From the IMG/VR virus record IMGVR_UViG_3300016471_001099, positions 32,001 through 96,000 of that record: a stretch of 64,000 nucleotides of DNA; one strand, given 5' to 3'. The notes under the pieces are model-generated. The model searched no databases. It saw nothing but the letters and a program-made list of their open reading frames with translations, and had not been told where the DNA came from. This document shows, piece after piece, positions 10,017 to 63,400 of this stretch (within the stretch, counting starts at the first letter, position 1; each line of letters starts with the position of its first letter). The DNA is from a virus. Position numbers and translations under genes: made by a program.

Positions 10017-13000
10017 ATGACGAACGAACAAGTTTCTCAGGAAGCCGACTACCTCTACAAGTCTTTGAACGCTCAGTTCAACATAGACGAAGCGCAGGGG
10101 ATAGTAGAGGCGTTCGTCGCAGGCATAGGAAACAAGGACTCCGTCGGAGACATATGTCTACCTGGTTGTTTCACGTCGTCGTTGAAGCGCAGAAAACCGA
10201 GAGTGGTTTGGGGTCACGACTGGAACTCCCCGATCGGAAAAGTTCTGGAAATTTACGAGGTGGGCCCCAACGATCCGCGTCTTCCGGCGAAGATGCGCAA
10301 GGCGGGGATAGGCGGGCTCTACGCGCGGGTTCAGTTCAACCTGAAGGCGGAAAAAGGCAAGGAAGCGTTCGCAAACGTGTCGTTCTTCGGAATGGAACAA
10401 GAGTGGTCCATAGGTTACAAAACTCTGGACGCCGTGTTCGATCCGGTTCAGACCGCAAACCTGCTGAAAGAAGTCGAGCTGTACGAAGTGTCGCCCGTTC
10501 TTCACGGCGCCAACCAATTGACGGGGACGATTTCCATAAAGGCCGATTCGGTTGAGGCCGAGACCAAGGAGAAGGCAGCCAGCAAGCCGGTTCTTCGCGA
10601 TCCGAAGGGCGGGTTGACGGCGGCTGGAAGAGCGCACTTCAAGCGAACCGAAGGCGCGAATCTCAAGCCAGGCGTGAAGGGTCCGGCCGACACTCCAGAA
10701 AAAATGCGAAGGAAGGGTTCGTTCCTGACTCGTTTCTTCACCAACCCCAGCGGTCCGATGAAGAAACCGAACGGGGAGCCGACGAGACTCGCCCTTTCCG
10801 CCGCGGCTTGGGGGGAGCCCGTTCCCAAGGACGCGTCCGACGCGGCGAAGTTGGCCGCCAAGGGAAGAAGATTGTTGGAGCGGTACGAAAATACCAAGAA
10901 AAAGAAAAAGGACGATTCCGACTCGGTTGAGAGCAAGAACCACGTCGCGGCGATATACGCGGCGATGACTTCTCCGCAAAACGAAGTTTTCGGTAGGGCT
11001 TCGCAGCTGACCAGGGCGCTGGCAACGAGATTCGGAGGGCCGGTCAGACTCGTCACGGCCGACAACGACATAGCCGTTTTCGAGATGGGCGCCGGCGACT
11101 CGACGGAGACGATGCGCGTCGCGTATCACTACGACGGAGACGAATTCATGTTCGGGACGGCACAAAAAGTCAAACCCGAAACCGTGTACATACCGGTCAA
11201 CGACTCCAACGCCGGGCAAATTCAAAACGGCGTGGCGATGGGCATATCGGCGGTCGAGGACAAGCCGGGATCGCATTGTTGTCCGGGTTGCGCGCACGGA
11301 GGCAACTGCGACGCCACCGTCGCGTTGGGGAACAATGAAAATCCGAAGATCGCGTTCCTGAAGCTCAAGTCGCTCGGCGATCAATTGGACTTCAAGGTCG
11401 TTCCGGTCGACGGAGGATTTGTCCTTCAGGGTTTTGGATTCCTCACCGAGGAAGCACAAAATTACGTCATCGGCAAAATAGAGAACGAACCGGAACAGAA
11501 GTTGCTGAATCCCGTCGGTAGTCTCGCCAGGAGGACGATAGGCGTTCCCAACGCCAGGGCATCGTTCAACATCGATACCAACCCATTCACGGCCAGAGAC
11601 GCGGACTTGGACAAATTGGTCCTCGAGGGAAACCCGCTCGTCAACCTGGGAAGAGGAATTCCCGACCCGACGCCTTTCGGGGCGCCCGACATCCCCGCCG
11701 TTGGGAAACCTGGCGTTCCCGAGCGTTACGTTCCTAACGTGGGCGGAAGAAGACCGATCGCTCCGAGAATGCCGGCGGTTCCCGAGCCTGACGAAATTCC
11801 GGAGCCGGCGAGGGAACCCAATAAGCAACCGAAGCCGGAAAGAACTCCGGTTACTCCGAGAAGGCCGAACAGAGAACCGGTCCCGGCTCCGGCTCCTCCG
11901 GAGAGAGAACCGGTTACCGAACCATCCGTGCCGCAACCCGAAAGAGAACCGGTCCCGGTTCCGAGAAGACCCGAAAGGGAGCCAACGAGGCCTACCGTAC
12001 CCGTTCCGCCGAGAAGACCCGTTCCGGTTGGAAGGGCGAGCAACGAGGACTTCGCAATAGCGGCGATGGGCGGAGGAAGGAGAACTCCGAAAGAACTGGC
12101 CGACGAGTTGGCCCAATTGGATTCGTCCGATCGTCCCAGCAGGCAAACGAGACAGCGCCGCGTCAGGGACGCCGGAATAGATCAAATGCGAAGGTTGGCG
12201 CTCCTTGACGACGCCGAAGCCGGAATGAGCGGACCCTACGGCGAAGGCAGAAAGTACGAAGAAATCGACAGTCTGATAGAGAGCCCCGCGCTCGACGGAG
12301 ATCGAACTCTGCACCTAGACCCAAGCACAGGAAAAATTTACGTCGCCGATCCGATCGAGAGAGAATACCTCTCGTCTAGGTTCGGAAACGATTATTTCCT
12401 GGAAAACGCCTACATGGACGAATGGGACTGGGATGAAATAGACAACGTCGGCTACGACGACATGGGCAACCTCGTAAGAAGGAGTCCGACCGGAGACGAA
12501 ATCATATTCAGCAGGGAACAATTTGGTTCGACCGGAACCGACGCCGGAATGGCGTCTCGCAAGACCTCCAGGAGCGAATCGGCCGATCTCGGAAGAAAGA
12601 TATGGCTGGAAAGAACGCACGACAGAATTTCGCTCGAGGAAGCCGGTAGGCGGAACGGGATAACGAGACAAGAGGCCAGGCAATTGGAGCTTCGTCACCA
12701 AAAATACTTGAGGGATCTCGGCGTCGATCATCCCAACAGAGTTCTTCGTTCGAAGGTGGACGACCCTTCGGTCGGGTTGACCGATGCGGAAAAGGATTTA
12801 TTGCGCAGGAGGCTCGACGGAGAATTGCTCCAGGAGGCCGCCGACCGTCTTCGTACGGACAGATACGCCGTCAGGCGAATGGAGCAACTTGCTCTCGCAA
12901 AAATGAGGAACGGAATGGCTGGGGACGAAACTTCGGCAGGTATGGCCGCTCGTTCCGGGGGCAGGGCGGTAGAAGCCGACCGCCCAAAAGCCCGACGGGC

Positions 13001-23753: not shown

Positions 23754-23804
23754 TTATTGTTGTTGCATTTGAATACGAACAATTCTTCTACAATTGGAGA
23801 GATT

Positions 23805-25400
23805 ATGAAATTTCTGCGCCAACACCAAGTCAAGTCGCTTGCCTCCGAATATCAAATCGTCATGGGCGAACTGGACCAATTGGAAGAGGACGAACCCAAC
23901 GACGACTACGTCCTCTCCATTCCCACTCCGGATCTTTTTTACGCAAAGTCGGCGATAGACGAAGTGCTGTCCGCCTACGACATGAGCTCGAGCGCCATCG
24001 ACGGCGGAATAGTTTTACACGATGCAAAAACGATCGGTCCATCGCTGGTGGGGGAACTCAAAACCGCGATTTTTGATCTATCGCAAAAGGCCTTGGGGGC
24101 GACGATCGGCGGTGCCGGAGGGGGAGGTGGAGGAGGAGCCAGCTCCTCAGACATGATAGACAGGGACGGCGACGGATACATATTCGACGGAACTCCTCAG
24201 GAGCAAAGAGTCCCCTACAAGCGTCGCGACGGAAAACCAGTGGGTGGCGGAGCGCCGACGGGGATGGAGGCGCGACGCAGACAATTCGTGCGCGGGGAAG
24301 CCGCCAGACAGGGCGTACAACTCAACAGGGGTCCGCAACGTTCGGAACAAGAAAGACGTTTCAGGACCGAGGCAAGAGCAAGATTCGACAGAATCGCCCT
24401 GGAGGGTCAGGGCTTCATCCCGGCGGACAGAATCGAAGCCGGTGATAAGCGCAATTTCGAGAATCGCATGGGCGACGTCAACGCCGGAAGAGTGGACGAC
24501 CAAGGCAGAAGCGGTTTTGGTTACGGGGGCGAAAGGGACACCTCGTTCGAGGACAACGAAAATCGCCGACAGCAAGGGTTGCGCGACACGTCTTTCGAGG
24601 ACAACGAAGAGCGCAGGCAAGAAGGAATGCGCCCAGCGGACACTTCTTCGCAGCGTGCCGAAGATGCACGAAATAGGGGTAAGCGACCGCAGCGTCCAGT
24701 TGATCGACTTAGCGGCGCGGGCGGACCAGGTTATGACGAATCGTTCAATAGAAATGAAACTCGCCGACAGCAAGGAATGCGTCCGGCGGATACGTCAAAC
24801 CAAAGAGCGGAAGAAGCCCGTCAGGGAGCTGCCAGACCGCAGCGTCCAGTTGATCGCCTCGGCGGTGCAGGTGGACCGGGTTACGACGAATCGTTCAATA
24901 GAAATGAAACTCGCCGACAACAGGGAATGCGTCCGGCCGATACGTCAAACCAGAGAGCTGAAGACGCAAGAAACAGGGATAGGAGGCCGCAACGACCGGT
25001 GGATAGATTGCCGGGAGCGGGAGGCCCCGGATACGACGAATCATTCGGTAGAAACGAATCTCGCCGACAACAGGGAATGCGTCCTGCGGACACGTCAAAC
25101 CAGAGGGCCGAAACCGCTCGCCAAAGGGGCGCCAGACCGCAAAGACCGGTTGATCGACTTAGTGGTTCCGGTTCGCGTAGGGTCGACAATTCAAACGAAA
25201 CTGCGGAATCAAATCGCATGAATCGGTCGCGTCCCGCCGATAGGTCTTTTGAAAGAAACGAATCTTCCAGGCAGAGTCGCAGTGCCAGAAATACAAGAGA
25301 GCTTCAGAAAAGACCCGTTGATCGGATCAACACGGCTGGAACGAGACCGAGGAAATTCCCGCGTGGCCGAAGCGATTATTACTACGGTGGCAATCCGTAA
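23805..25400 (+). CDS. Repeat-rich hydrophilic protein with a DRDGDGxxxDGT motif
   Basis: SD GGAGA before ATG 23805; motif DMIDRDGDGYIFDGTPQEQ; C-terminal half consists of tandem repeats. Confidence 0.75.
   Translation: MKFLRQHQVKSLASEYQIVMGELDQLEEDEPNDDYVLSIPTPDLFYAKSAIDEVLSAYDMSSSAIDGGIVLHDAKTIGPSLVGELKTAIFDLSQKALGATIGGAGGGGGGGASSSDMIDRDGDGYIFDGTPQEQRVPYKRRDGKPVGGGAPTGMEARRRQFVRGEAARQGVQLNRGPQRSEQERRFRTEARARFDRIALEGQGFIPADRIEAGDKRNFENRMGDVNAGRVDDQGRSGFGYGGERDTSFEDNENRRQQGLRDTSFEDNEERRQEGMRPADTSSQRAEDARNRGKRPQRPVDRLSGAGGPGYDESFNRNETRRQQGMRPADTSNQRAEEARQGAARPQRPVDRLGGAGGPGYDESFNRNETRRQQGMRPADTSNQRAEDARNRDRRPQRPVDRLPGAGGPGYDESFGRNESRRQQGMRPADTSNQRAETARQRGARPQRPVDRLSGSGSRRVDNSNETAESNRMNRSRPADRSFERNESSRQSRSARNTRELQKRPVDRINTAGTRPRKFPRGRSDYYYGGNP
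24621..25170 (+). repeat. 150-bp (50-aa) tandem repeat, about 3.7 copies
   Basis: xxGGAATGC recurs at 24621, 24771, 24921 and 25071. Unit: RRQQGMRPADTSNQRAEEARQGAARPQRPVDRLGGAGGPGYDESFNRNET. Confidence 0.92.
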
Positions 25401-25414
25401 AGGTCAATCGATAA

Positions 25415-25618
25415 ATGAAACCTAGTTCTGGAGGTGGGTACACCCGTGGCAACCGTGTTATGGGTTATGATAAACCTGCACAAAATAACGGAGCTAAATT
25501 CAAATATCACTGCATAGCAACTGGCGAAAAACGCCAGTTTCCGTGCGGAAGTTGCGGCAACCACAAGGCTTGCCTCACCTCGACAATGCAATACAAGGAG
25601 CGAAAACATGGAACCTGA
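25415..25618 (+). CDS. Small Cys-rich protein (possible Zn finger)
   Basis: YHC..GEKRQFPCGSC...KAC; overlaps the start of the next gene. The start could be ATG 25460. Confidence 0.6.
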   Translation: MKPSSGGGYTRGNRVMGYDKPAQNNGAKFKYHCIATGEKRQFPCGSCGNHKACLTSTMQYKERKHGT

Positions 25619-27398
25619 GACCGGAGCACCAACCGTAAAAATCGGCGACGACGGCCAGGTGCTTCAATGCGCCAAGGGAGTCGAGCTATCGGCATGTGGT
25701 TACAAATCGGGTGACTCCGTGTGCGCCGCGTGCGGCGCAACGGCGGTAGAGGTGAAAATGTGGAACGAGGGCGATGGCATGGATCAGAACTGGCCCCCCA
25801 AAAAGAAACGCAAGAAGAAGCCAATGATGCAGGAGGGCATGGAGGAAGATTCCGATGAATACATGTCGGAAAAAGCAGCCCTCTACGGAGCTCCCCCAAC
25901 GAGAGCATACGGAGATTTCGTTGACGACGAAGAGCTAGGAATCGAACAAGAGGACGAGGAGATGGCGGACGAGGAGATGGCGGACGAGGAGATGGAAACC
26001 TTCGAGCCCCAAATGGAAGACCCGGACGAGGAGATGATGGACGAAGAGTTGCCGACCGCGATGGCAAGAGGTCGGGCTCCGATGATGAAAAGCGGGTACA
26101 TAGAAGACCCGGATGCCATGGATCTGACCCTCGACGAGGAGGACGAAGAAGACGGTCTAGAGGAAATGATGGACGAGCCCAACGAGGAGGAGATGGAAGA
26201 AGACTCCGAACAAATGGGTTACGGGATGTACGAAAAGTCCGACTACGAGGACCTACGACTCCAGACCCTCGGATTCAAACAGGGAGAAATGGGCGACAAT
26301 CCATTCGTCTGCGCCATAGAGCGAAAAGTGTATCCGGCCAATTCCCCGGTGTGCGAAAACTGCCCAGGCGGATGCGTCAAGGAAGGCGATATGCCGGCGC
26401 TACTACAGATAGAAGGCGTGGCGGAGGACATGTTCCGTGGAAAAGTTCTGGATTCCGGATACTCGGATAAGGCGGATATTTTCGTCGTTGACGTCGAGCG
26501 CAAGGACGGAAAACCGGTCGAAGCGTTCTTTGACGGAACCACCGGTGAGTGCATGGGATGGCACCTCCTGAACGACGAAGTTCTGAACGTTAAGTCGGGA
26601 TTCCAGCCGACTCAAATGATCGGTTTCTCCGAAGCGGCGCAGATAGCCACAAAGAGCATCAACGGCGACGTTGTTTCGGTCGAGGCCGACGTCTTCGAGG
26701 GGTTCGACAGTTACGCGGTTGAAATAGAGGGCGTCGACGGCAAGTCGTACGACGTTTTCGTCTCCCTGGACGGCGAAGTTCTCGGCTACGACACCTATAC
26801 GCAACAGGAGGCCTTCGCAATAGAGTCCGAGGCTGCCGAGATAGCGCTCAAGCGCGCGTACGGCGACGACGTCAGGAAGCAAATGGCTGAGCGCGGCGAC
26901 GCCATGGAGGACGGAGAGATGCCGATAGTCAACGATTCCGACCTGCGCAACGCGATCATGGCTTGGCCGCGTTCCAAGAAGCGAACTGAGGCAAAAAACC
27001 ACATCATGGCGAGAGCCAAAGCCCTCGGTCTAGAGAAGTCCCTGCCGGACGAATGGTTGCATGAAAAGAAACAAAACGAAGAAGCCAAGGGCGACGCGAA
27101 TTTCCTGTCGAGTTTGGCGGAGTTCGAGATTCTTTCCACCGAAGTTTCTTCGACCGAGCCGGACTACGACAACGACATCTACTTCAAGAAAATGTTCAGC
27201 GAGGAGCGTCGTAGCGAGTTGGCCAAGGGCGGAATGGCGCTTCCCGACGGCTCGTATCCGATAGAGAACGAATCCGATCTCAAAAACGCGATTCAGGCGT
27301 TCGGAAGAGCCAAGGACAAGGAAGCCGCCAAGGCGCACATAACGAAGCGCGCGAAGGCGCTAGGAAAAGAAGATCTGATTCCGGAAAACTGGAAGTAA
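25608..27398 (+). CDS. Acidic head-associated protein: Cys clusters, two PepSY-like domains, two DUF6582-like repeats
   Basis: IGFSEAAQIA...GDVVSVE.....Y.VEIEG.DGKSYDVFVSLDGEVL is PepSY-like. Twin repeats of A.PDGSYPI.N.SDL.NAI.A..R.K...AK.HI..RAKALG...P..W. DUF name recalled from memory. Confidence 0.7.
   Translation: MEPETGAPTVKIGDDGQVLQCAKGVELSACGYKSGDSVCAACGATAVEVKMWNEGDGMDQNWPPKKKRKKKPMMQEGMEEDSDEYMSEKAALYGAPPTRAYGDFVDDEELGIEQEDEEMADEEMADEEMETFEPQMEDPDEEMMDEELPTAMARGRAPMMKSGYIEDPDAMDLTLDEEDEEDGLEEMMDEPNEEEMEEDSEQMGYGMYEKSDYEDLRLQTLGFKQGEMGDNPFVCAIERKVYPANSPVCENCPGGCVKEGDMPALLQIEGVAEDMFRGKVLDSGYSDKADIFVVDVERKDGKPVEAFFDGTTGECMGWHLLNDEVLNVKSGFQPTQMIGFSEAAQIATKSINGDVVSVEADVFEGFDSYAVEIEGVDGKSYDVFVSLDGEVLGYDTYTQQEAFAIESEAAEIALKRAYGDDVRKQMAERGDAMEDGEMPIVNDSDLRNAIMAWPRSKKRTEAKNHIMARAKALGLEKSLPDEWLHEKKQNEEAKGDANFLSSLAEFEILSTEVSSTEPDYDNDIYFKKMFSEERRSELAKGGMALPDGSYPIENESDLKNAIQAFGRAKDKEAAKAHITKRAKALGKEDLIPENWK
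25953..25995 (+). repeat. 15-bp tandem repeat GACGAGGAGATGGCG, about 2.9 copies (DEEMA)
   Basis: Read directly from the sequence. Confidence 0.9.
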
Positions 27399-27410
27399 GG
27401 AAGAATCGAG

Positions 27411-33220: not shown

Positions 33221-33232
33221 GGACAATACGTC

Positions 33233-41685: not shown

Positions 41686-41687
41686 TA

Positions 41688-44429
41688 ATGACGCGTAAAA
41701 AGATAGGTTCCAAGCGCACGAGTCGCTCTTCGTTCGTCGACGACAAAACCGACGCCGCCCTGTCCTCCGTATCGGAAATGTCTGACGTCGTTCGCACCAA
41801 GGTGATGCGTCCGATAGGGGCAGGTCCGCTACCGCCCCCGCACTTGGTCAGAAACGCCGACCTTGACCCGTACATTTACGAAGGAATTCCGTGGATCAAC
41901 AGAGGTAGAGGAATAATAGATCCGACCCCTGGAAACCTAAATCAGCCGCTGAACAGAAGGCTTAGAAGAGAATACAGAAGCGACCTCGGAACTCCTTCTC
42001 GTATTTCCGCCCTCAGAATCAGCCCGTTGCAGACGATGAGTTATGCCGACGGACCGATGGCGGCGATGGCCGATCCGAGAGTGATCAGAAATCCCCAAAA
42101 CGTGATTTCGGTGGACGATTCCAGGACGGCCATCCAAGACATTGAAGCAAAAGTAGACGCCGTTTTAGGATCCAAACCGAACACGCTGAGAGAAGCGACG
42201 GACAACTTGCGAAAATTGGAGAACCTCGTCAATGCCGGAACACCGAACGGCAGAAACTTCAAACTTGACGTTCCGTATTTTGAAACACAGATGCAACCGG
42301 AACTCAGTGCGGTAAGCCCAAGATTTTCCGGGGACAACACCCCCATGTCGCAATATGACTACGGAGTTTATTACGGATTGGCATTAAACCTTCTTTCCTA
42401 TCCGACGGCATTCGAGCACGCTCATCTGGTTTTGACGGCCAACAACAATCCAGACATGCCCACGGAAGACGGGCTTGGAGGTAAGGCGACGTCGCTTCCC
42501 TCGTACATGCTGGTATCCGTAAAATCGGATAGCCAAAGAGAGGTGCCTGGCGTTGGCGTAGTCACCGCCGAATCCGGGGCGAAAGATATGTCGGACGTAA
42601 ATATATCCGTCGTCGGGGCGCAAGCTACGAGCGGAGCGCGACTACCAATTGTGGTGAGTTTGCCGATATACAAAAGTCAAGATCAGCAAAAAGGAGTGAT
42701 GCATCTTTTTAATCCGATTACACAGATGATGACGCAATTGATGGGGCGCGCGATTCCCCCGATGGTGGCAATGGCCCCAACCCCGGAGGACAACGTCGAG
42801 CATTACATCAAGTTGTTAGCCGAGGCGGAAAAAATACTGGCCGGGAGCGGCGTAGCCGTACAGCCAATAATGGACGGCGTTTCGTCCGGGATCATAATCG
42901 GTTACCTGCAACAAATGGACCAGGTTCAAGCGCGCATTGAACAATTAAAGAACGTCACCGGGGAACAGACAGAGGACAACGCCCTGCAGATGGTGCGAGA
43001 ACTCGAGAACGAATTGTCGCGACTTTACGCCGAAGCGCAAAAAGCCGGTTCGCTTGCAACGACCCTGCACGAAATGGGACACTTGCTCGACTACGTCAGT
43101 GAATACAGGACTTCTCCTGATTACCAAAGCGTGGTTGGACAAGCTTCGCAAGGATTGAACAGCGACATCGAGTACACGAGGGACGTGGCGACCCTGCAGC
43201 GCATAGCAACCGGACAGAACGACCCGATAACCAAGGACATCGCCGAAATAATGTCGCGCAAATTAATGAAAAACAAGGTCGTTGACGTCCTCATGAACGA
43301 AGCCCTGCTTGAAGCGATAGACAATCTACGTCAAACTACGGAAAGAACGCAGAACGAACTCGGCCTCATCCAACAGGACGTGTCCGTTTTTGCGCCGAAC
43401 GGTGGCGGTTCGCAATTCGGCGGATGGTTGGAGGCCTTCCTGACGAACGAACCACAGGATATAAACGCCTCGAGCGCCTCTTCGATCACGAGGCCCATAA
43501 TCGCATCCGGAAAAATATCGGCGACCTTGCTTCAAGATCCAGATCGCCTATCAGCGCTGGCCCAGGGAGTAATCGACAAAATAAAAGCGATGGGAGAGGC
43601 GACGATAGTCGGAGCTGGAGATCCAAGCTTGCGGCAATATTACGATTTTTACAATCAAGAAATAGAGCCGAGAATCAAAGCGGCGACCGAACTGATCGCA
43701 AACCTTCCGACTCCAGCCGGAAGGGCCGCTGCATTGGCGGCGACTGCCGTGGGCATACACTACGCCTACCTAGAAACATTTTCCGACGCAATCAGAGTTT
43801 TGGCGGAAAAAGAGCTACAAGCCGAAACAGATGCCATTGGGTACCAATATCTTGTTTCTTGGTTGTCGAACCAAACCATACACTCCCAGTCAGCCAAGGA
43901 GGGTTACAGAAACCTTCTCACCGACATTCTCGGCGGAAACCCCGCTGCCGTCGGCGAATTCATGGATTTGTACGGAAAAACAAAGACAAAACCTTGGTTC
44001 GATCAAAACGGAAAGTTCGATCCAGTCGCTTACCTCGTCGACTTGTTTCAAGACCCCGCCAATATCAAGGGCGCAAGCCTTGAGACGGCGATTCAAATGG
44101 TCAACGGCTGGCACAGGGCGCGCAATTCCAACGGGTGGAAAAACCTGCCAGACGACGACATAAACGCAATTAGATCGGCGGTCGGCAAATTGACAGAGTA
44201 CGCCGGACCGGCGGACTACGATTTCGTGATGCCTTTGCCAAAATTCGAGTACGCGACCAACAAGGAAACGTACGCCGAATTGCACCCGATAATTTTGATG
44301 AGACTAGAGTCGATATTAAAGAGACTTAGCGATAAAGAACGCCGAGCGGTTGAAAAATTGCACGACGAAATGATCGCACAGGCCCAGACTGTTCTCAATC
44401 GCATGGGCAACGGAGGACAAACGCCATGA
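41688..44429 (+). CDS. ~914-aa protein with a DPTP module and a zincin-like metallopeptidase
   Basis: NADLDPYIYEGIPWINRGRGIIDPTP; TTLHEMGHLLD; distal EYATNKETYAE. Confidence 0.75.
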   Translation: MTRKKIGSKRTSRSSFVDDKTDAALSSVSEMSDVVRTKVMRPIGAGPLPPPHLVRNADLDPYIYEGIPWINRGRGIIDPTPGNLNQPLNRRLRREYRSDLGTPSRISALRISPLQTMSYADGPMAAMADPRVIRNPQNVISVDDSRTAIQDIEAKVDAVLGSKPNTLREATDNLRKLENLVNAGTPNGRNFKLDVPYFETQMQPELSAVSPRFSGDNTPMSQYDYGVYYGLALNLLSYPTAFEHAHLVLTANNNPDMPTEDGLGGKATSLPSYMLVSVKSDSQREVPGVGVVTAESGAKDMSDVNISVVGAQATSGARLPIVVSLPIYKSQDQQKGVMHLFNPITQMMTQLMGRAIPPMVAMAPTPEDNVEHYIKLLAEAEKILAGSGVAVQPIMDGVSSGIIIGYLQQMDQVQARIEQLKNVTGEQTEDNALQMVRELENELSRLYAEAQKAGSLATTLHEMGHLLDYVSEYRTSPDYQSVVGQASQGLNSDIEYTRDVATLQRIATGQNDPITKDIAEIMSRKLMKNKVVDVLMNEALLEAIDNLRQTTERTQNELGLIQQDVSVFAPNGGGSQFGGWLEAFLTNEPQDINASSASSITRPIIASGKISATLLQDPDRLSALAQGVIDKIKAMGEATIVGAGDPSLRQYYDFYNQEIEPRIKAATELIANLPTPAGRAAALAATAVGIHYAYLETFSDAIRVLAEKELQAETDAIGYQYLVSWLSNQTIHSQSAKEGYRNLLTDILGGNPAAVGEFMDLYGKTKTKPWFDQNGKFDPVAYLVDLFQDPANIKGASLETAIQMVNGWHRARNSNGWKNLPDDDINAIRSAVGKLTEYAGPADYDFVMPLPKFEYATNKETYAELHPIILMRLESILKRLSDKERRAVEKLHDEMIAQAQTVLNRMGNGGQTP

Positions 44430-44797: not shown

Positions 44798-45386
44798 CGA
44801 AATGAATACCAAGGCCAATTTGCCTTCGGTGAGCGTTTCTACTGACCCGCTAGGCGGGTTGATACCGCAGGAGATCGTAAGCGGCGACATAATGCGCGGT
44901 TACGGACCTAGGCGAGGAAACTTGGAGCGCTTGCTTCGCTACTGGCGCCCCATCATGAAGAAGCCCGGCGGGTTCAGGAGATGCAGGGTCATTCTTGCCG
45001 ACCACCCAGAACTTTACCCACTGAACAACATCTGCGCCTGGTTGCACCATGAGACGACCGGATTGTGGCCGAACGAGGGTTGTCATCACCCGGGAATGAA
45101 GAACTGCAGGAGAAAACTTCGCGGGGTGGTCAATGGCTCGATTTGGAGCGACTCGGATTTTAACGACAGGCTGAAGAGGGTTACGAGACGCGCGGCCAAG
45201 AAGGACGCAAGGTCGAGCAACGGCATAGACGCCGCTCCTGCCTACGATCCTTTCGTTCCGGTGATAACCGACGACGATTGGGACCACGCTTGGAAGGTGA
45301 TGGACGATTTCGTGAAGATGGAACCAGTTTTCGTTAAGTTCGTTTGCGACGACAATAACTGGGAGATGTTCGACTCTGATGTCTGA
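44787..45386 (+). CDS. Phage head-region protein with a Cys/His motif
   Basis: GNLERLLRYW...PGGFRRC......CAWLHHETTGLWP; I recall this pattern from actinophage head regions. Confidence 0.65.
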   Translation: MQNDEMNTKANLPSVSVSTDPLGGLIPQEIVSGDIMRGYGPRRGNLERLLRYWRPIMKKPGGFRRCRVILADHPELYPLNNICAWLHHETTGLWPNEGCHHPGMKNCRRKLRGVVNGSIWSDSDFNDRLKRVTRRAAKKDARSSNGIDAAPAYDPFVPVITDDDWDHAWKVMDDFVKMEPVFVKFVCDDNNWEMFDSDV

Positions 45387-47472
45387 ACGGAACGAAGTAG
45401 TTTCATGCTGCCCGACCGAAGGGAAGTTGGTTAGAACCATACTCCCGTCGGTTGCGATATCACGCGAGAACGTGTATACGCTTCCGCTGTCGGTGGCGAC
45501 CAGCAAACAGAATGCAGTGGATTTCAAGTGTTATCAGCTGGCAAAAGTCGGACCGTATTCAGACGTTTACGACAACAAGGTTAAATTCAAGGCAGGCATA
45601 GTCAGGTCTTCGAATCCGGCCGTTAGGGCGGCCCAAGCCGTAGCTTCTTCCGCCCTTCCCGGAAACATGTCGGCGCTCAGAAACCCGGCACGAGCCACCC
45701 TGTGGTCGGCGGCTACGCCCGGAGGAAACTCCGTCCTGCCGACCGGCTCAATCAATCCGTTGGCCAGGGCGGCGGCGGGGGCTTTTCCGAAAGCCGAACG
45801 AGGATTCAGGTGCCCAGAAGGTTTTCAATTCGGCGGTCAATTCACCGACAAATATTTTTCCACGTGCGGGAAAAAACTTTTTTCTCTCGCGGTGTCCTTG
45901 CTTTCCGGAGTGACCAACGCTTTCGAAGCCCGTTCGCTCGGGTTGCCGAGGCAGTTGAACATATCCGGGGTTCCCGTGACGCCAATCGGCGGGGTGGGCC
46001 AAGTGTCCACCGTCAGGAGACCAGACATAGAAATACCCAAGGTCGGGTCGCCCAATTTCGGAGCTTTGAAAAACGCCATCAGAAACGTTTCATCCGAGAT
46101 GAACGAATACTCGAAACCCGTGTCAAGGCTGGTGAGAAGAGACGGCGTCGTCCTTACCCCTCTGGTGTCTCCGAAAATACTGCGCACCGTTCCCGACAAC
46201 AGGAACATGGAGGGTGCCGCTTACGTTTCGTACGTGTCCAAGCCCCATCAAATAGGGGGCGAGGAGTTGGGTATGTTTTCCAACAGCGGGATCAACTCTT
46301 TGATTTACGTGCTTCCCAACGGGGGGACGCTCACCCTTCGTAAAACGAGAAATCTGAGCAACGGCGAGCGTAGAAAACTCGGTCGTTTGGTTGCGGAAGC
46401 GGAACGGATGCGCAACGGCGACGACGCAGCCGCAAGAATCGAGCATATAGCGGCCGAAATGGACGGCCCGGTCGCGTACGAACAATTTTTCGGCGATTTG
46501 CGTGGACCGAACGATTTGATAACCGTTTCCGACCCAAAAACCAAGAAGCAACGCCAGATGCGTCGCTGGTACAGGGACGCGTTCATGTTGGACAAAACAA
46601 GGGGAACCGTCGCGTCTCGCGATACGCAGATAGAGGACGAGGCGGGGATGATAGAAGATCTTCGTTCGGCCGTAAGCATGCTGAACCAAGGCGGTCAGAT
46701 CGGGAACGTCGCACCCGAACTGAGAATACCAGCCCTGGAGATGAGCAAGTATGCGGAAAGCAGAAAACTGAACAACAGGATGACGAGGTACAGACTGGGC
46801 GACGATTTGATAACGTCCATCGTTCCGATGTCGTCCAACGAACACATCGGGGTAATGACGGCGGCGGAGGTGCAGTCGCAGTTGGGCGCACTGGCCCCGT
46901 ATGTATGGTTCGCGGGTTCGGGAACGAGGCGTCCGTACTTGATCTCCTACCCAAACGATTCAGAATCTCTCAGTCGTTTTTCTAGAAACACGGGAATGGA
47001 CCTAGCCGATCCGGAGGACATGGTGAGGCTGATGATCGCCGACTTCCTCACCGACACGCGCGACAGAAACCCGTCGAATCTTTTTACGGTCGGCGAATCC
47101 TCGCAAAAACGCACTTTTGCTGGTCCCGTCGCCTCTTCCGGTGGAGCAGGGTTGACGAAAACTCAATTGGAAGAGCGAGTCAACGCCCCGAGGGTCGTAC
47201 TGATGTCGGAGTTGGAAAATTCGTTTTATCGGTCTTATTTCATGAGGCTAAGAAAAGAACAGAGACGACGAGCCGTCGCTTTGCTGGAAGAGATGCTTGA
47301 CAGGGCGCGTAGGTTCAATATGGCAGAATTCTATAGGCGAATGGCCATAGACGGAAAACTTACCGAGGCGGAGCGCCGTCATATGGACATAGTCGCGAAG
47401 ATATTCGAAAACAGGCTGGAAATGCTGTCTGGTTCGCTCAGGTACGCAAGGAACATAATCAATGGAATCTAA
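45379..47472 (+). CDS. 697-aa protein with an RCPxG..GGQFTD motif and a C-terminal HipA/PI3-4K-like kinase-fold domain
   Basis: RGFRCPEGFQFGGQFTD; IADFLTDTRDRNPSN resembles the D-x-L-x-x-N-x-D-R-H-x-x-N kinase signature. Confidence 0.65.
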   Translation: MSERNEVVSCCPTEGKLVRTILPSVAISRENVYTLPLSVATSKQNAVDFKCYQLAKVGPYSDVYDNKVKFKAGIVRSSNPAVRAAQAVASSALPGNMSALRNPARATLWSAATPGGNSVLPTGSINPLARAAAGAFPKAERGFRCPEGFQFGGQFTDKYFSTCGKKLFSLAVSLLSGVTNAFEARSLGLPRQLNISGVPVTPIGGVGQVSTVRRPDIEIPKVGSPNFGALKNAIRNVSSEMNEYSKPVSRLVRRDGVVLTPLVSPKILRTVPDNRNMEGAAYVSYVSKPHQIGGEELGMFSNSGINSLIYVLPNGGTLTLRKTRNLSNGERRKLGRLVAEAERMRNGDDAAARIEHIAAEMDGPVAYEQFFGDLRGPNDLITVSDPKTKKQRQMRRWYRDAFMLDKTRGTVASRDTQIEDEAGMIEDLRSAVSMLNQGGQIGNVAPELRIPALEMSKYAESRKLNNRMTRYRLGDDLITSIVPMSSNEHIGVMTAAEVQSQLGALAPYVWFAGSGTRRPYLISYPNDSESLSRFSRNTGMDLADPEDMVRLMIADFLTDTRDRNPSNLFTVGESSQKRTFAGPVASSGGAGLTKTQLEERVNAPRVVLMSELENSFYRSYFMRLRKEQRRRAVALLEEMLDRARRFNMAEFYRRMAIDGKLTEAERRHMDIVAKIFENRLEMLSGSLRYARNIINGI

Positions 47473-54368: not shown

Positions 54369-54403
54369 CACCGCACAAACCGGTATTGAAGTATTCTTAT
54401 CGG

Positions 54404-54409
54404 TACTAT
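54404..54409 (+). promoter_or_regulatory. Putative -10 element (TACTAT)
   Basis: TANNNT in the AT-rich gap before ATG 54443. TTGAAG at 54386 is at non-canonical spacing. Confidence 0.25.
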
Positions 54410-54442
54410 AAGCGCGCTTAATGCGTTTACGAACGGGAACAA

Positions 54443-57400
54443 ATGGACGACTCAACCGAACAGGGCGATTGTTGCCCTATTTCGCACGAAGACATAGAGA
54501 CCAAAGGCGTCTCCTTCGGAGCGAGACAAGTCAGACCCGACAGTTTTGACGCATACGTTGACAAAGAGTCGGCACGAGCCAGGGCAAGAATGCTCGGGTG
54601 CATCGGCATACGCCAATACAGCTCGACTACTGGCGGAATGGTCTGGATGCCGTGCAGCAACGAATCCGATTACAGGCGCGTGATGGGCCAAAGCGAACTA
54701 GGAAGACGTCAAAGAAGAAGAATGATGAAGGCCGGTTTTTCCGAAAACCAGCAAACCAAGGCCCTCGGCTCCACAATCGGTGCGGTCGGTGGACAAATTA
54801 ACACCGATCCATTTAGCGCAATAGACGCCGACCTTGACGGCTTGGTTCTCGAGGGACTTCCACATATCAACATGGGGCGAGGCGTGCCAGATCCGACTCC
54901 CGGCGGCGCCAGAAGGGACTCCTTCGCCGCGCAAGACGGCAATTTTGCTTTGGCGGCGATGACGAGAGGAAAACCAACGCCGACGACGGAACGCATTTCC
55001 GAACCAAAACTTTTTGAGGTGGGCGAAAGAAACGTTCGACCAAGCCAAGCGACGAGATCAAGAAGAAACGTCGAGGAGGCGGTACGCAATTTTGACAACG
55101 ACGGTTTCGAGGCAATGTGGAGGAACGCAACCGCGGATTTGATCGATTCCGAGTTGTTTGATTTTGACGATGCCGACGCCGCGAAAAATGACTTTATTTC
55201 GGCAATCGAGGACGTTGCCTCTCGGGTGTCGGAAACGGTCGATTCGTCGTTCCGGGCTCCGGACGGACGGCCAGATTCGTCGAGAAGAGTCGCCGACGAC
55301 ACGTCGGCGAGAATTGCGGCGAAGGTTCTTGGTTCCATCGCCGAACTAACAAACAACCCTCCGGAAATTTTCGCCCAGAACGAATCCGTAGCGAGACGAT
55401 TCGCTTCGTCAATGATCGAATCTGGAGCCAAGCGAGTCGCCGAAACTGGTGGCAAGCCAGGCGTCTGGGCATTTTTGATTCAGGCCCTGCTCGGCGGCGC
55501 GATAGGTATTCAGGGCGGATGGGAGTTGCTCGCTCGCATATTCGGCATAGAAAATGGGACGGGATGGATACCGCACCCAACCGGAAGAAGTCTTGAAATT
55601 CTTGCTCCAAGTCTCGCTCGTCAAAGATCGAACGAGTCCCGATCCAGAGCGATGGGGAGAGTACAGAAGGCGCTAGACGCCCTGAGGGCCGCTGGCTTCG
55701 CAATAGGCGAAGCAAGGGAAATCCCCGCCGTGGCCGACGATATGGCGGAAGCTCTGGATGGCGACGGAGTTATCGAATTGCCCGGAGACGTGGTTCCCAC
55801 CGATTCCAGAACTATTTCGTCGTTGGACGAAATGATCAGAAAAATGAGATCCGCTACGGGGGTGACCGATTCGGCGCCTGCTCCGCGTCGCAGAAGGACG
55901 CAAAGACAGTCCGAAACGGCGGATGCCGTAACCAGGAACAGAATGGATTTGGTCGGAATCCCGACTGGAATACTGGACGTATTCAAGACGTCTTCGATGG
56001 AGGACTTGACGGAAGCCGACGCCAAAGCTTCTCGCCTCATAAACGCAGGGGGCACCGACGGAACCGGAAAACTCAACGCCGAACTTCTTTACGACGTGAT
56101 GAAAAATCAATCTTCGTTGCGCAGGTTCGTTGCCCCCGTCGAGTCTGCATACGCGGCTCAACTTGGCGCATTGATAGAAGAGGGGCGTTTGCCGAAGCTG
56201 ACTGACGCAATTCTGGAAATGTCGCCGGAATCAGTTGAAAATTTTCTAGCGGTTAATCCGAGAGCGATAATCAATTCTGCTCGTTCCGCAAAAAAGAAGA
56301 TTCGCCCCAGTGGTTCGTGGATTTCAAGGATAGACCACGATCCTTTCGAAGTGGCGGCCCATATGTTGAGAGCCAAGGACTACCACATTTCGGCGATAGC
56401 GAACGGCTATGACACGCCAAAACTTGCTGACGCCGTTGACGAACTCCTCGGAAACAACGCCTCAGAAACGGCTGCGATTTTCGCATCAATGGTGGCGACG
56501 AACAAGGACAGACTGTCAGAGGCTTACGACGGATCGGTGACGGTCTCTCGTTCGGGAAACAAGCTGCTTGCCACGGCGAGGAACCTCATAGCCAACGCTA
56601 CGGAGAACGACAGCTCGTGGAGTGCGTCACGAACCGCAATATCTGGCGTTTCCGACGCAATGGTTGCGGGCGACGAACCCATGGCTGCGATGGCCAAACA
56701 GGTCGTAAGGTACGGGCGAAATTATCCGAGGCACAGAAGGCGGAGCGGCGATTGGTCTCCGATAGCGAACAAAATACGCGATTCAATTCAGCGCTACAAG
56801 GGCAAATACGGCGCGCCAGCGGCAAACTCCGCCGATCTGGCGCGTTTCGTGGATTTCTCTTATCCGGAATTATTGGATGAAGCAGCCGAACTCGTCGACC
56901 TAATGAAACAAAAAATAGAATTTGGGTCGCTGAAATTTGACGACTACGCAAGCGAAGGCTGGAAAAACCGGGACGTCGCCGAGCTTGCTTTGGACGAATT
57001 CGACCCGACGAATCTTGAATCCATATTCGATCCAGGCAAAAAAATGGGATTGCTCAAGGCCATAGGTGTTGTATTGGCCTCCGCCGCCAAGGTGGCCCCA
57101 TCCAGAAACGAGCAGGAAGGCGTTCTTGATCTTCTCGACGAGGTCAACTCGTGGAGTTTTACCGTCCTTCCGTTGTACTCCGAGCCCAAATCAGTAACGT
57201 CTCGAAAAAGGGGAATATTCCCCTCGGTGACGCAAGACGCCGAAGCAGGCATGACGGTAAACAGACCCGTTCCGATGGACGTTCGGGAGACGCTTGCCGA
57301 ACGACAGGATCCACTCGGCTCCGGTCAAAGACAGGGGCTTCCGCAGATGAGAATGCAAAGAAAATTGATCGAGAGAGCCAATGCGATTCTCTCCGACTCG

Positions 57401-60400
57401 GAACCAAAGGACATGGTCGAGAGGCTCACCGTAGATCCCAGCGGACCGGTAATAGACATAGCCGAAACTTTCCTAACGACGGCCGAACAATTCAAATGGG
57501 ATCAGGAAACGATCGCTTCGTTCTACGAAGACGTTGCTCAGATGATGCACGCAATGGTGCGGGACGTGCCAGACCCGGACAAACGCCAGAAATTGGCGGA
57601 CATGTTTACCGACGCATTGGAGGACATCTCCGAAAACATGGACGACGGAAACTCGGAATTTTTTGCCAGGGTGGGCGATATTCCTTCGAGAACCGTCAGT
57701 CGCCTGGCCAGGAGAATAGTTTCTGGAAACGAGGTTCCCACCGAGGCTGGAATGAACCGTACAGACGACGGATCGGAAGAGGAAGCTCAGCAACTTTACG
57801 AAGACGAAATGTCTCGTCGTGCCGAGGATTTTTTGACCCGCAACGAATTTCCCGAATTAATAGAGGAAGACGAATTACAAACTGGCCCAACACCACAGCC
57901 ACAAAAAAGAATACTTTCCGACGCCGAAACTACGACGATATTCGACGGAGTCATGCGCGTTGTTTCGTCTCTTCAAAACGAAAACATAAGGGAAAACCCG
58001 AACGACAGAGACTCCTGGAGGGAAAAACTAAGGGCAGCCGGAATAAACTCTCCGTTCTCAAACGCCGAAATCTTGGATGATTTGGCGGATTCTTTGTTGC
58101 CCCAGGATTCGCTGGAACCACGTCCCATTTTTTCCAACCCATACGCTGGTGTTTCATCTGACGCCATAGACGATCTTGACCAAATTTTGAACTCGGTGCT
58201 GGACGAACTTGGAGTTAGCACCACGGGGACCGTCGACGATTTCGTTTCCGATTTACGCCGGATAGCAGGAATTAGGAGTAGCAAGGACTTCCACGACACG
58301 ATCAGGTCGCTCAGCGCGCGCAGCGGTAGGGCAACAAGCGACGATTTTGCAGAACAAGTCATGGAAAATTCCTATTTGACGACCTCGGCCATCAAGGCCC
58401 GAGTCTCGAGGATGTTCCCCGACTTCTATGAAGTCATGGATTCCTTCGTTGACGAAGGAGACACCGAGGCCGGGATGTCAGGGCCGACGCTTGACAGGAT
58501 TAGGCAAAGCGTCGTCGCGGCCAGAGAGGTGAGAGAACTGGGCAAAGTAGCCGCCATGGACGACGCCAAGGACTACGTCATGCGAACCACCGAGGCGCGT
58601 CGCAGGCGGTTGACGTCAATGGCTGCACCTGGCGAATTTCTTGATTTCATAATTGCTGGCATAAGGGACCAAAGATCCCCCCTGTACCTCAGACGAATAT
58701 CCGCGCAGAGGGGCGGACTGGAGGCGTATATAAAAGAAGCCTCCGATTTGCAGATAAATCAAATTTGGGAAGCTCTTTCCAATTTCGTATCTTCGGCAAG
58801 GAACGAACTTTCCGAAGGCGGGTACGGAGCGTTTTATTCGTCGATGTATCTGGCCGCGAAAACGAAAGCCCTGGCCGAAGACCCGGATTTCAGACCAGAC
58901 GCCACCGGCAATTTCACGGACCAAGAATTGCTTGACCGAATCGGATCGTCTTCGTGGGAGGCGATTCTTCCTGATTCCGATGCAATGACGATCACCCCCT
59001 CCGACGTTGACGCGGTTCCGTCGGTGCGAGCAAAAGCGGAGGCGGCGCTGGAGGTTCTTTCTCTCGACAGAAATCAGTTGATCGCGCTCATGACCAATGA
59101 ATCCACGACAGAAGAAGCGCAGCGCAATATTTCGGAGGCAATAGGGGCCGAGGCCGTACGATCGGACATTCAATCGAAACCAGGAAAGGTCGAATACGTT
59201 CCGACGCCGATGCACATGGAGCAAATATCGGTGGCCGATTCGATAACTCCGCTTGATTCGAATTCTTTGGTGAATTTCGTCGAAACTTTGGACGACGCAC
59301 AACTGACGAGTCTCGAAGGAATTGTCCCGGATGTACGCGTTGCGGATGCCGTTGAAAAAGAAACGAAAACTCTTTCGTTTGCCACGGCCACAAGGAAACT
59401 TTTTGGTTTAGCCGAGATTCATTCATCCGAGCCGAACGAGTTGCGGTCACTCTCCAAACGCGTCGGACAGATGCTGGATGACGAATCTTTTTCTTCTCCG
59501 GTCAAGGATTTGTTGCGAGCCGTAATGGCAAACGACGACTTGCTCGCATCGCAAATTCTCTCAGAAATGAACGTGGCCGATTCCGCAAACGAGGCTTCGT
59601 TGCTCAGGGCGATGTGGGAATTCTCCAGGGACTCTTCGGGAAGATCAATAGCTTCTGCGCTGCCTGGAAACATAGACGAAGCAGAAAAACTCGCCGCTCG
59701 CAGGGCCAGGGCCGTGGGCATACTCAAATCGCAACCCGACGGCGGACGAGGCCTGGCAAGAAAAACGATAGATGCGCACCCCAAGGGCGGCAAGGGTTAC
59801 GATCTTGTCAGAATATCGGCCGAACCGACGGACCGTCAGAAAAAAATACTCAACTTGGCGCAAGCTATAGCCGAATACGACGGCAGCCCAGAATCGGCGG
59901 CGAAAATAATTTATTCGCTCTCCGAACCGCAATTGGAAAATTTGCGACGCAACTACATAATCCCGTCGATTCTTCAACGCCTGGATAGGCAAGCCTACGA
60001 AAGAAGACAAGAGCAAAGCTCAATAGCTCAGGCCAGGGCGAGAATAGACAATCTCGGTCGTCGTCTGGAGATGATCACTTTCGGAAGCGAAGAGGCAGAA
60101 CGAAAAGTGGAAGACGTCGTATCGCGCATAGACGAGGCCCTAATAAAAGCTTTCGGCGACAGGTCTTCGGAGCTATCCATGCTGTCTCCGCAAGAACGCG
60201 AACACTACGGAGACATAGTCGACTACTACGTTTCGGGTGGCTCTGAAGTTTTTGACGATCCATCCGAATATGCCAGGGCGTCAAGGAGAGAAAGGTTGGC
60301 GAAAGCCGAACCGTCGGAAAACGAATTTACTTCCACCGCGTCGTCGCAGCAACAACCGACTCAACCATCGGTGGCCGAAGAGGAAAACGATTTTTGGGAC

Positions 60401-63400
60401 GATCTTGGAATCGAATCAGGTCCTATCCAAGACAAAGGAGAGAGCACCGACGCCGGAATGGCTGGTCCAACCCCGACCCAGGGAGACGGGGAAAAGAGGG
60501 AGCTAAAACCGCTACCCGAGGAAGTTGCCAAGAAATTGTTCGGGGACGACGTGGTCGGATGGATAAAAGAAGGAACGTGGACTGCTGGCAGAACCACATT
60601 CCCGACTACCGACGATCCGGACGAAGCTGCGTACGTCAGGCGAGCGATAAGCGCGTTGTTCTCCGTACAGGAAGGCAAATTGCCGGACGACGTTTCGGAA
60701 AGGTTGAGGAAAGAGGGAAACTACGCCGCTTCGCAATTGATATTTAGGGCTTTGATAGGGAGAACGGCGGACCTCATTTCGGCGATGCCCAACCCTCCGT
60801 ACGATTTTCCGGGAAACGGTTACGACCCTCGATCCGACTCGGACCTGGACAGGCGCAATTTTTTCCTGTCGGCCATGCAGGAGTACCTCTCCCTGCACAT
60901 GACGCTCGGCGGAGACGTCTTGCCGATTTACGATTTTTCCCCCGACAGGGATCCCACGCATTACTATTTCGAGATAAAACGCAATGATTTTCAGTTGCAG
61001 ATGTCGAGCGACATCTCCAATTGGAGATTGGTGTACAACCCAGACCAGCCGAACGATACCGTCAGGAGCGTCAACGAGGAGCCACCGGCTGACGAATTCA
61101 CCGGGGATCCATCCGCTCACCCGGACATACAAAGCGTAGACAGGACGATAAGTGCCCTAAAAAGACAATTCCCAAATTTCAGGGACTGGCTAAACCAGTC
61201 GACTCGTTATTCCAGAACCCTCGGGGGAGAACATTACGAAAAAGACACCGCTAAATTCGGAGTCGGAATAATAGACCAAGTCCTCGCTGATCCGACATCA
61301 ATGGATTTGGAAAAAGTTATTCGCCAGGTAGCAGAACAATTTCCAATCCGCGGCTACGGTGACTCGGTTCGCTTGGCTCAAGACGCCGCGAATCTCGGTG
61401 CCGACCCCGACGACGTAAGCCCTTTCCCAACTATGGAAAGCTATCCGAATCCCGATGTGATGATCGGTTCGGACATGCCGAGGGACAGAATCGCAAAACA
61501 AAAGAAAATAGCCGTCTCAAGCGCCAAAGCGAGCGCGGCCGCGCGCCAGTCTTGGTGGGCGATGTTCTCGTCGGGTACGACGATGGACGAATACGAAATA
61601 GCGGCCGTTTCTAAAACTACCGACGGAGACAATTTTCATCCAGACGCCATACTCTCGGGATTAAGGAAATACGCCAGAGAAAACGGTATTTCCGACGACC
61701 AATTTGACGCCATGTATTCCACGGCTCAGGCCGCGGCCAACGGACGCTACAACCAGGTGGCTCTACAAAAAGTTACCGCGGCGTTGAACGATATAGCAAT
61801 GAACTCGCGCGGAGGAGTGGCCGGTGAGCTCATGCGCCTGGATCAACTAATGAGAACTCTGCGAAACCAAAGCAAGGAGCTGAGTCGTCATTACCAGGAC
61901 AGACTAAGGGCGCGCATACAGACCCTTTATTCGGCCTGGGGAACCATGACCGCGTCGTTCGATGCCGAGCGCGAAAGGCTCGGTAGAGAACTTTCGGCTG
62001 GAAGGATGACGCCGCAGGAGGTCGTGGACGAAATAAGAAGACTGTGGCTTTCCATGCAACCGGCGGCTTACTCGGCCCTCAACCAAATAGCCGATCTCTC
62101 CAGGAGGACGCGCGCATCACAGAGGGCCAGGGACGCCGTAGATACTCAAATAGGTGAGATCGAACAAAGAATAGAAGAAATACGCAACGCGGTCAACTTG
62201 ACGGTTACCGACATGGATGCTCGGATGCGCATACTCAGGGGAGTCAACAACGGGTTATCGCATTTGGCAAACGATCCGAACGCGCTGAACGACGATAACG
62301 ACGCCGGCATGAGCGTCGGAAAGACAAAATTCGGAATCGTCGGACAGACCCCCGATCGCGTCGGTCAAAAACGCGAGCTTTTGTCCAGCAAAGAAAAGTT
62401 GTTTGCCGAGGAACTAAGGAAGATAAACGATCTTGTGTCGGCAACAAATCTTGAAGACATGTCGTTCGTTCCGGATTTGCGAACCGCCATGGCCACTTTG
62501 CGAGGCGGAATACCAGACAGGGTCATTCCGCAAATGCGTTTTGGTACGGACTCGGAAATCCGACAAGCGAAGAAAATCGCGGCAAGAATGATTCGCGCCG
62601 ACATGGATGCCGAATCGGCCACCAGAAAAATAATGGGGTCTCGTTTCACGCGTTTCTCCGAAATGGCCCTCAACTCCCTGCCTGGTCTGACGAGACGAAT
62701 AGCCGAAGACGTGATCGTTGACGGATTTGCCGTGGCCATGTCCGCGAATAACGCCAAAGAGCAGGACGTTGAAGCGGCATTGCTGATGTTGAACGATGCC
62801 ACGAAAAACGCGCGCAATTTCGCAATTTACAATCCTCTGGAAATTACGGCCCGTTACTTCAACGTGGATCCAGAGGAGGTTGCCGACGCAATAGCGACGG
62901 AGACCCTTTTGGCAAAGACGAGCAACGTTCTCAGGTCTGCCCAAACATACGCCTCCGGACTTTCGGCGACGTATTCGGAACGGTCGGTTAGAAGAATGAC
63001 GGCGAACAGATTCCCGGAGTTGGAGAACCTGGGGTCGGTATATCTAGACTCTATTTTCGTAAACGACGACGCAGTCGGAGAAGCGAACGCAAAACTCGAA
63101 TCGGCGATATTGCTGAACAGTATGATCGGTCTCGGCCCGTCGACAATATCTTCGGCCTTCGGGGTGTCGGAAGACGTTGCGCAACTCATCTCGGCGGCCG
63201 GAAGGGACAAATCACCGCTACCAGACCTCCGCCAGCCCCTGCCCCACGACTGGAATTTTATGACGTTCAGGGACAGGCAATTGTGGCTGGGATCGGAAGA
63301 GGCTTTCAATTCGCTTGGCCGCATGGGCGTAAACGACGAGTTGGCAAAACTACAAAGAGAAATAGAAGATTTTGGTTCCATGGACGGACCGTACCCGGCG

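Follow-up and report, generated by a model that had tools for sequence, protein, structure and literature searches.

Recurring linker peptides in the giant head-module proteins of an uncultured freshwater phage: a candidate protease-site code for virion cargo

Introduction

Why should a phage place five giant genes between its portal and its capsid genes, and join the unrelated segments that they encode with one short, recurring peptide? The question is raised by a 64,000-nucleotide stretch of IMG/VR virus record IMGVR_UViG_3300016471_001099, referred to here as the window, which comprises bases 32001-96000 of the 117,419-bp record (estimated completeness 79%). The source phage is uncultured and comes from freshwater, and the nearest cultured relatives of its portal are actinobacteriophages. 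All coordinates are window positions, and the giants are named B, E, F, J and L (Table 1). A sequence-only reading of the window had drawn attention to an A-G-M motif in acidic linkers, and had proposed that the giants are packaged polyproteins cut into dozens of effectors. We find that the motif is strongly enriched in the giants, lies in linkers and is replaced in related phages by lineage-specific versions, and we suggest that it is probably a protease-site code that splits virion cargo polyproteins. Which enzyme would read this code is a more difficult question, and the candidates are weighed below.

Results and Discussion

An A-G-M peptide recurs throughout the giants

All 24 of the Met codons listed by the sequence-only reading proved to lie within an in-frame A-G-M, or N-V-G-M at 22644, and the enrichment that it had implied is confirmed against composition, with AGM strongly over-represented in the giants and not in the other open reading frames (ORFs). 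No tripeptide is more over-represented than AGM in the five giants of the window (24 occurrences, 2.9 expected, and a maximum of 12 in 2000 shuffles), and across the whole 117-kb record there are 30 copies in the giants (3.5 expected) compared with 2 in all other ORFs (19,774 aa; 4.0 expected). The full pattern [DE]x[TPA][ESD]AGM occurs 13 times with 0.024 expected. The consensus from 30 sites has D/E at positions -6 and -5, T/P/A at -4, E/S/D at -3, then A-G-M, S/A/T/G at +1 and an Arg-rich stretch from +3 to +7. The codons vary synonymously, as had been claimed (GCC, GCA, GCG and GCT for Ala; GGA, GGT, GGC and GGG for Gly), and the preceding codon varies as well; the signal therefore resides in the peptide. 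The most frequent DNA form of the core is GCCGGAATG.

Three occurrences had been overlooked, at J 52046, I697 46648 and L residue 4795, the last of which is outside the window. The I697 and L 4795 copies lie in conserved blocks, that of I697 aligning with AGF, and from this context they are probably not sites. The final ORF, giant L, also required correction: the sites reported in it stand, and it extends to 70177 (5244 aa) with six further AGM. Spread of the motif by internal duplication can be set aside, as the only internal matches in a self-BLAST are a single duplicated module (B 1431-1877 with F 2314-2763) and a shared tag described below; apart from this one module the segments between sites, 108-1333 aa in length, are mutually non-homologous.

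Two looser resemblances were seen in neighbouring genes. The linker between the portal and MuF domains (portal residues 430-490, window 9000-9180) contains PGGPMIPGMGAV, APQEGMTAA and AQAGQMSQA, which are loose Met-plus-small-residue motifs, and the MuF domain might also be cut off the portal at such sequences. The second is GGMALPDGSYPI at window 27234 (residue 541 of the 596-aa protein D596), which is conserved in this protein and its orthologues (KKGGMALPD in the related genome G001). Residues 526-595 of D596 form a repeated C-terminal block that matches twice in relatives, and GGMALPDGSYPI is probably a domain motif of that block and not a site.

The sites lie in linkers that bracket separate modules

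The flanks of the sites are more hydrophilic than random positions (mean Kyte-Doolittle value -1.08 vs -0.60, p 2e-6), and the net charge switches from -2.3 upstream to +0.5 downstream. An AlphaFold2 model of B 700-1300, made from nine aligned sequences of which eight are segments from relatives' loci, places 4/4 sites in stretches where the predicted local distance difference test score (pLDDT) is below 50. Two of these sites, at model positions 146 and 277, flank a confidently predicted helical domain (pLDDT 76-91, model residues 151-270), which begins 5 residues past the first and stops 7 short of the second. The Pfam domains recognised in the giants (GerE, RNase_T, wHTH, NUDIX and Zeta_toxin) all lie within segments, and none crosses a site.

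The three domains that the sequence-only reading had placed between sites fared differently. The helix-turn-helix (HTH) array between 29784 and 31371 is supported by a Pfam match (wHTH-PRTase_assc, 5e-9), and the twin HTH between 12549 and 12942 corresponds to a confidently modelled helical domain, but its fold matches are weak ones to sigma-factor, TetR and ParB-like proteins, with E above 0.25. The GNAT assignment between 38857 and 39982 (F 1875-2249) was not upheld, with no Pfam family at E≤1.

Comparison with related phages indicates that modules are exchanged at these points. Collinear stretches shared with relatives end at B 733-740, 840, 975-980, 1889-1900 and 2210 and at L 1346, all adjoining sites, and for high-scoring segment pairs (HSPs) of at least 600 aa, 6/14 breakpoint clusters are no more than 10 aa from a site, compared with a null mean of 0.62; none of 20,000 randomisations reached 6. 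The giants are also 8-fold depleted in Cys, with 14 in 16,351 aa (0.09%) vs 0.69% elsewhere in the genome, perhaps because they have to remain unfoldable in order to pass the tail.

Related lineages carry their own versions of the motif

The protease N-terminus of giant B has more than 590 relatives in IMG/VR. The motif search in homologous contigs that the sequence-only reading had proposed shows that the nearest relatives (L004-L008) keep AGM, and that others carry a recurring peptide of their own instead: GP[VI]G-x-M-[SAG] in G002, a complete 174-kb genome; P-[TV]-[AG]-[SA]-M in L009; R-G-M-A-S-R in G001; G-F-[AS]-S in L075, L076 and L078; and G-L-A-S in L081. In the alignments these versions share their columns with the sites of the window, and aligned pairs include SAGM-SGLTN with TGSM-SGLTN, EAGM-AGRR with VGAM-GRR, and RGMASR with RGFASR and RGLASR. 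In G002 the pattern [GSAD]P[VIT]G.[MLF] occurs 17 times and is confined to three head-module proteins among 178 ORFs, and in G001 RGMAS is present in four ORFs. Judged from these alignments, the site has Met/Phe/Leu at its centre with a small residue next to it, and its flanks shift in concert genome-wide. Such a concerted change of flanks across a genome fits a trans-acting reader with evolving specificity.

A candidate protease-site code

We favour the interpretation that the motif is a protease-site code splitting virion cargo polyproteins, which we regard as probable. The five giants between the portal-MuF and capsid genes are strings of unrelated modules of ~110-1330 aa joined by one linker; many of the modules are unassigned, and the others include HTH domains, an RNase T-like exonuclease, NUDIX and a Zeta-type kinase. 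A 60-aa N-proximal tag, present in four of the giants and in the HExGH protein G915, would direct these proteins into the procapsid, where a phage-encoded protease would then cut the linkers. The cut would most likely come after Met, so that each new chain begins with a small, stabilising residue. The product would be roughly 35 separate proteins that are carried in the head until they are ejected along with the DNA.

The position of the predicted cut is suggested by the lineage versions. Ser, Ala, Gly and Thr are stabilising N-terminal residues under the bacterial N-end rule, and Phe and Leu are destabilising. The scissile bond is thus most likely the one after Met/Phe/Leu, giving new N-termini of S/A/G/T, because a cut before the hydrophobic residue would expose a destabilising Phe or Leu in the sister lineages. 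With a large hydrophobic P1 residue and a small P1' residue, such a cut would also be reminiscent of the A|S rule, which PMC5512222 cites for the related herpesvirus assemblin.

The tag is a module of about 60 aa (NPF.ARDADLD..VLEG.P..N.GRG.PDPTP), identified by blastp and hmmsearch in B, E, G915, J and L with domain E values of 1e-31 to 5e-29. It is placed near the N-termini of E, J, L and G915, and past the protease region in B, and could serve as a capsid-loading signal.

The protease region of B is the leading candidate for the reader of the code, although this attribution is a tentative one that stops short of likely. It matches Peptidase S78 (PF04586) with 40.1 bits, compared with a curated cut-off of 21 (E 5.4e-10), as well as phrog_80 head maturation protease (1.7e-26), and is the only protease recognised by any model in this system. 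H67 (VVWGH) and S131 (EWSIGY) are invariant in 11 relatives and are the putative catalytic residues; no solved homologue of the domain was found either by single sequence or by profile. The sequence-only reading had proposed a protease in residues 1-175 as the cutter, and its identity is borne out by the S78 assignment; its part as the reader is weakened by S78 conservation, the motif-less capsid and the tape-measure site, to which we now turn.

Several observations weigh against the scheme as a whole or against this enzyme within it. Cleavage is predicted from sequence alone; the breakpoint test is marginal (p about 0.05) when all HSPs of at least 100 aa are used; and the tag was not found in giant F by blastp or hmmsearch. 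Lineages with different motif flanks nevertheless share 69-84% identity in the S78 domain. The capsid protein, the obligatory substrate of a prohead protease, is without AGM, its best position-specific scoring matrix (PSSM) score being 3.4 vs at least 13.4 for the giants' sites, and its N-terminal 190 residues are conserved over four lineages with no lineage-specific motif there. Finally, the sequence-only reading had seen no full motif in the left-arm genes; the strict motif is indeed not found there, but the 1716-aa tape measure encoded in that arm carries a near-cognate DEPMAAM-T, the best non-giant PSSM match in the genome (p 0.014 within the protein, and at about the 90-95th percentile of the genome-wide null, or about 0.05-0.1). 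The top-scoring tape-measure site reaches p<0.05 in 4/6 lineages (besides the window, p<0.002 in G005, 0.006 in G003, 0.024 in G001 and 0.07 in G004, and not significant in G002), in the version of the lineage concerned, and the top or second match is N-terminal (residues 38-58) in 4/6. This weighs against S78 as the reader because the tape measure is a tail protein, to which an enzyme confined to the prohead should have no access.

The sequence-only reading is thus supported in part. Peptide-level selection, position in linkers, swapped modules, column-conserved lineage versions and a motif common to separate proteins of one genome are what would be expected if a trans-acting factor, for example a protease, recognised the site, and the head-module position, the fused S78 domain and the tag fit packaged cargo; cutting, and the role of the pieces as effectors, are at the level of prediction. 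A more encompassing version, in which a programmable 'junction code' changes in concert at dozens of sites in every ejected protein, the tape measure as well as the cargo, is read by a dedicated co-evolving protease, and allows swappable cassettes to be released as ~35 effectors throughout a large freshwater phage family, is plausible but falls a little below an even chance.

The capsid protein was considered as a carrier of the motif and rejected, since only a lineage-invariant NGANM[IP]S was found in it. It has a 120-aa coiled-coil delta-like region, with NGANM[IP]SPFQ at about residues 135-145; this could be the capsid's own maturation site, although it does not match the giants' motif.

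Alternative explanations

An alternative in which the sites are cut, but by a phage zinc metalloprotease, is the strongest of those considered, although we think it somewhat unlikely. The enzyme would be G915, with its tag and HExGH, or one of the HExxH modules that F and E contain, acting in the head or post-ejection on cargo and tape measure alike, and zincin-like processing of polyvalent proteins was predicted by Iyer et al. 2017 (PMC5512222). G915 carries the tag with a near-cognate site, ADGPMAAM-A, directly after it, and relatives keep such a site in their own versions; HExGH, D470 and E497 are invariant in 11 members of the G915 family, down to 17% identity, and the HExxH motifs of both G915 and F (HELNH) are retained in the fused G002 orthologue. 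The presence of the motif in the tape measure, and the failure of the S78 domain and capsid protein to co-vary with it, also fit this alternative. However, HExxH by itself is a weak signal, and neither Pfam (E≤10) nor Atlas gave anything usable on the peptidase identity of G915. Its AlphaFold2 model has a mean pLDDT of 62, falling below 50 at HExGH, and Foldseek against PDB returned nothing at E≤0.001. The HELNH of giant F similarly has no HMM (hidden Markov model), Atlas or fold support as a peptidase, and no clear G915 orthologue was found in the RGM/GF clade, only an unrelated HEMVH in a G001 giant.

It is also possible, though distinctly unlikely, that the motif is left uncut and is a conserved linker or docking peptide, recognised by a packaging, chaperone or ejection factor, or used for threading through the tail. 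Its location in flexible linkers, its presence in the tape measure as another protein that exits via the tail, and the fit of Cys depletion with unfolded translocation would all be accounted for. Against it, a hydrophobic and then a small residue with an acidic-to-basic switch across them make a pattern like that of protease subsites; the motif changes in concert over whole genomes, as would fit the co-evolution of an enzyme with its substrates, and a protease domain stands at the head of the first giant.

Cleavage by a host protease after ejection, with lineage versions that track hosts, is very improbable: it would explain why motif versions vary by lineage while the phage S78 domain hardly changes, but close relatives (protease 86% identical, long collinear giants) already differ in version.

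That the Met codons are internal starts or fused-gene remnants, or that the 9-nt core is a DNA recombination signal for cassette shuffling, can be dismissed almost entirely, since against the invariance of Met in this genome, the breaks in collinearity at sites and a single commonest DNA form (GCCGGAATG) stand the absence of any consistent Shine-Dalgarno sequence upstream of the AGM Met codons (GAG at position -3 in only 6/25 sites), a synonymous codon variation that argues against DNA-level homogenisation, and a comparison of relatives' ORF boundaries with the sites in which no ORF end maps to any site. Internal start codons in particular are excluded, as Met is replaced by Phe or Leu at orthologous sites (RGMAS / RGFAS / RGLAS) and Phe codons cannot initiate translation.

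Comparison with known systems

Among described systems the giants most resemble the polyvalent proteins encoded by phages and conjugative elements, for which Iyer, Burroughs, Anand, de Souza and Aravind (2017; PMC5512222) predicted processing in the head or post-injection. As in those proteins, unrelated effector-type domains are joined in one chain beside virion genes and MuF/portal, with a peptidase domain in the chain, and HTH arrays, RNase_T, NUDIX and Zeta_toxin are found here in chains between the portal-MuF and capsid genes. The zincin-like metallopeptidase (MPTase) hub of polyvalent proteins has a possible parallel in the invariant HExGH...E of the G915 family and HELNH in F, which are without HMM or fold support. 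There are also clear differences. No common linker motif is described in PMC5512222, whereas here there is a genome-wide, lineage-specific junction peptide together with a tag; assemblin-like peptidases are reported there only at the C-terminus, and the S78 domain here is N-terminal; and the chains here are longer (up to 5244 aa), with five per genome.

The cargo systems of T4 (gp21 with IPI-III/Alt), phiKZ (gp175) and SPN3US (gp245) likewise use an assemblin/HK97-fold protease with a short consensus on packaged proteins (PMC5694885, PMC10052503), and in them N-terminal targeting sequences load cargo that is ejected into the host, as is proposed here. The candidate for the capsid-targeting sequence in the present system is the 60-aa module of B, E, G915, J and L, not found in F. 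The T4, phiKZ and SPN3US enzymes cut after Glu, at (L/I)-x-E or (S/A/G)-x-E, and the motif is also in their capsid and scaffold proteins (PMC5694885, PMC10052503). Here the core is Met/Phe/Leu plus a small residue and not Glu, the predicted substrates are multi-site polyproteins instead of single proteins with a propeptide, and the capsid protein does not share the consensus, which is present in the tape measure.

A parallel in a cultured phage is provided by Streptomyces phage Gilgamesh (MN234216.1), in which gp46-gp48 include a portal-MuF fusion followed by a 4624-aa Cys-free giant ORF, as here; unlike the giants of the window, Gilgamesh gp48 has no AGM and no comparably over-represented tripeptide. 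Literature searches found no published description of this junction code.

Genome organization

The phage has the layout of a myovirus, because genes for the sheath, tube and tape measure lie upstream of the window. These are on the minus strand, in the order sheath, tube, a small ORF and the 1716-aa Ala/Gly-rich protein, which is assigned as the tape measure by position. The capsid gene sits 46 kb downstream of the terminase / portal-MuF / S78 protease group, with the giants in between and smaller ORFs interspersed among them (Table 1). D596 is kept in every lineage examined, and the C-terminus of giant L contains NUDIX and Zeta-toxin kinase domains, each in its own site-bounded segment.

Table 1. 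Features of the window and of the adjoining head module (giants B, E, F, J and L; Met codons are those of the A-G-M sites unless stated)
Feature	Window coordinates	Strand	Details
Large terminase gene	6147-7457	minus	Faces portal-MuF fusion
Portal fused to MuF-like domain, 740 aa	7713..9935	+	Pfam Phage_portal 3.6e-50, Phage_Mu_F 6.7e-10; phrog_2662 portal
Giant B, 4578 aa	10017..23753	+	S78 residues 24-181; DUF6321 194-265; tag 507-571; cargo modules, with RNase_T and GerE matches inside site-bounded segments
Giant B sites, 10 AGM and one NVGM (22644)	12225, 12549, 12942, 13830, 15708, 16665, 17898, 20658, 21609, 22329, 22644		Met codons
Shared tag module within B	11535..11729	+	NPF.ARDADLD..VLEG.P..N.GRG.PDPTP
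Two head-module proteins, 547 (C547) and 596 aa (D596), function unassigned	23757..27398	+	Strict motif in neither
Giant E, 1866 aa	27411..33011	+	Tag residues 17-80; HTH array; Met codons 28599, 29784, 31371
Giant F, 2815 aa	33238..41685	+	Conserved HELNH at residue 692; Met codons 34303, 38302, 38857, 39982
G915, tagged, 913 aa	41688..44429	+	Tag residues 38-100; near-cognate ADGPMAAM-A next (Met codon 42066); HExGH residues 463-467
I697, conserved head-module protein	45379..47472	+	Single AGM, Met codon 46648
Giant J, 1848 aa	47462..53008	+	Tag residues 226-289, then DGAMGS and ARGMRS; Met codons 48659, 52046
Giant L, 5244 aa in all	54443..64000 within window, ends 70177	+	Tag residues 110-176
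Giant L sites	57251, 57752, 58475, 60458, 62309		Met codons in window; six more past window
HK97-fold capsid gene, after L, outside window	70453-71844 (L084:4953-6341)		PF05065 3.2e-44

The boundary between F and G915 differs among relatives. Giant F ends in TGA-TAA, and the ATG at 41688 is the G915 start by family consensus (window 41683-41690); a -1 frameshift joining F to G915 is unnecessary, with this ATG only 2 nt past the F stop. In G002, whose genome is complete, G915 is joined to the N-terminal part of F in a single 1759-aa protein, and on this comparison the difference is a gene fission or fusion.

The DUF6321 module of B (residues 193-297, window 10593-10907) is a separate 246-aa ORF in G001, with 88% identity, and its conservation far exceeds that of the sequence around it. 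Outside the window, the capsid gene is closely followed by genes for an Asp/Asn beta-hydroxylase-like protein (L084:6420-6938; PF05118, 4.7e-15) and a 724-aa protein (L084:6928-9099) homologous to C547 (33% over 297 aa). In the left arm, at 374-2433 on the minus strand, a PAPS-reductase-like gene (phrog_2302, 1.6e-72) adjoins a ParB-like nuclease gene, the latter with one chance AGM.

Implications

If the linkers are cut, one phage delivers dozens of proteins to its host from five genes, and the polyprotein strategy of RNA viruses would be extended to tailed phages at a much larger scale. Such cargo would then be recognisable in metagenomes by sequence alone, wherever a linker recurs in head-module proteins that also bear a tag. 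Most of the modules have no assigned function, their context points to roles in host takeover or anti-defence, and the map of sites supplies ready-made domain boundaries for their expression. Moreover, the enzyme and its site appear to change together across lineages, which would make this phage family a natural series for studying how protease specificity evolves.

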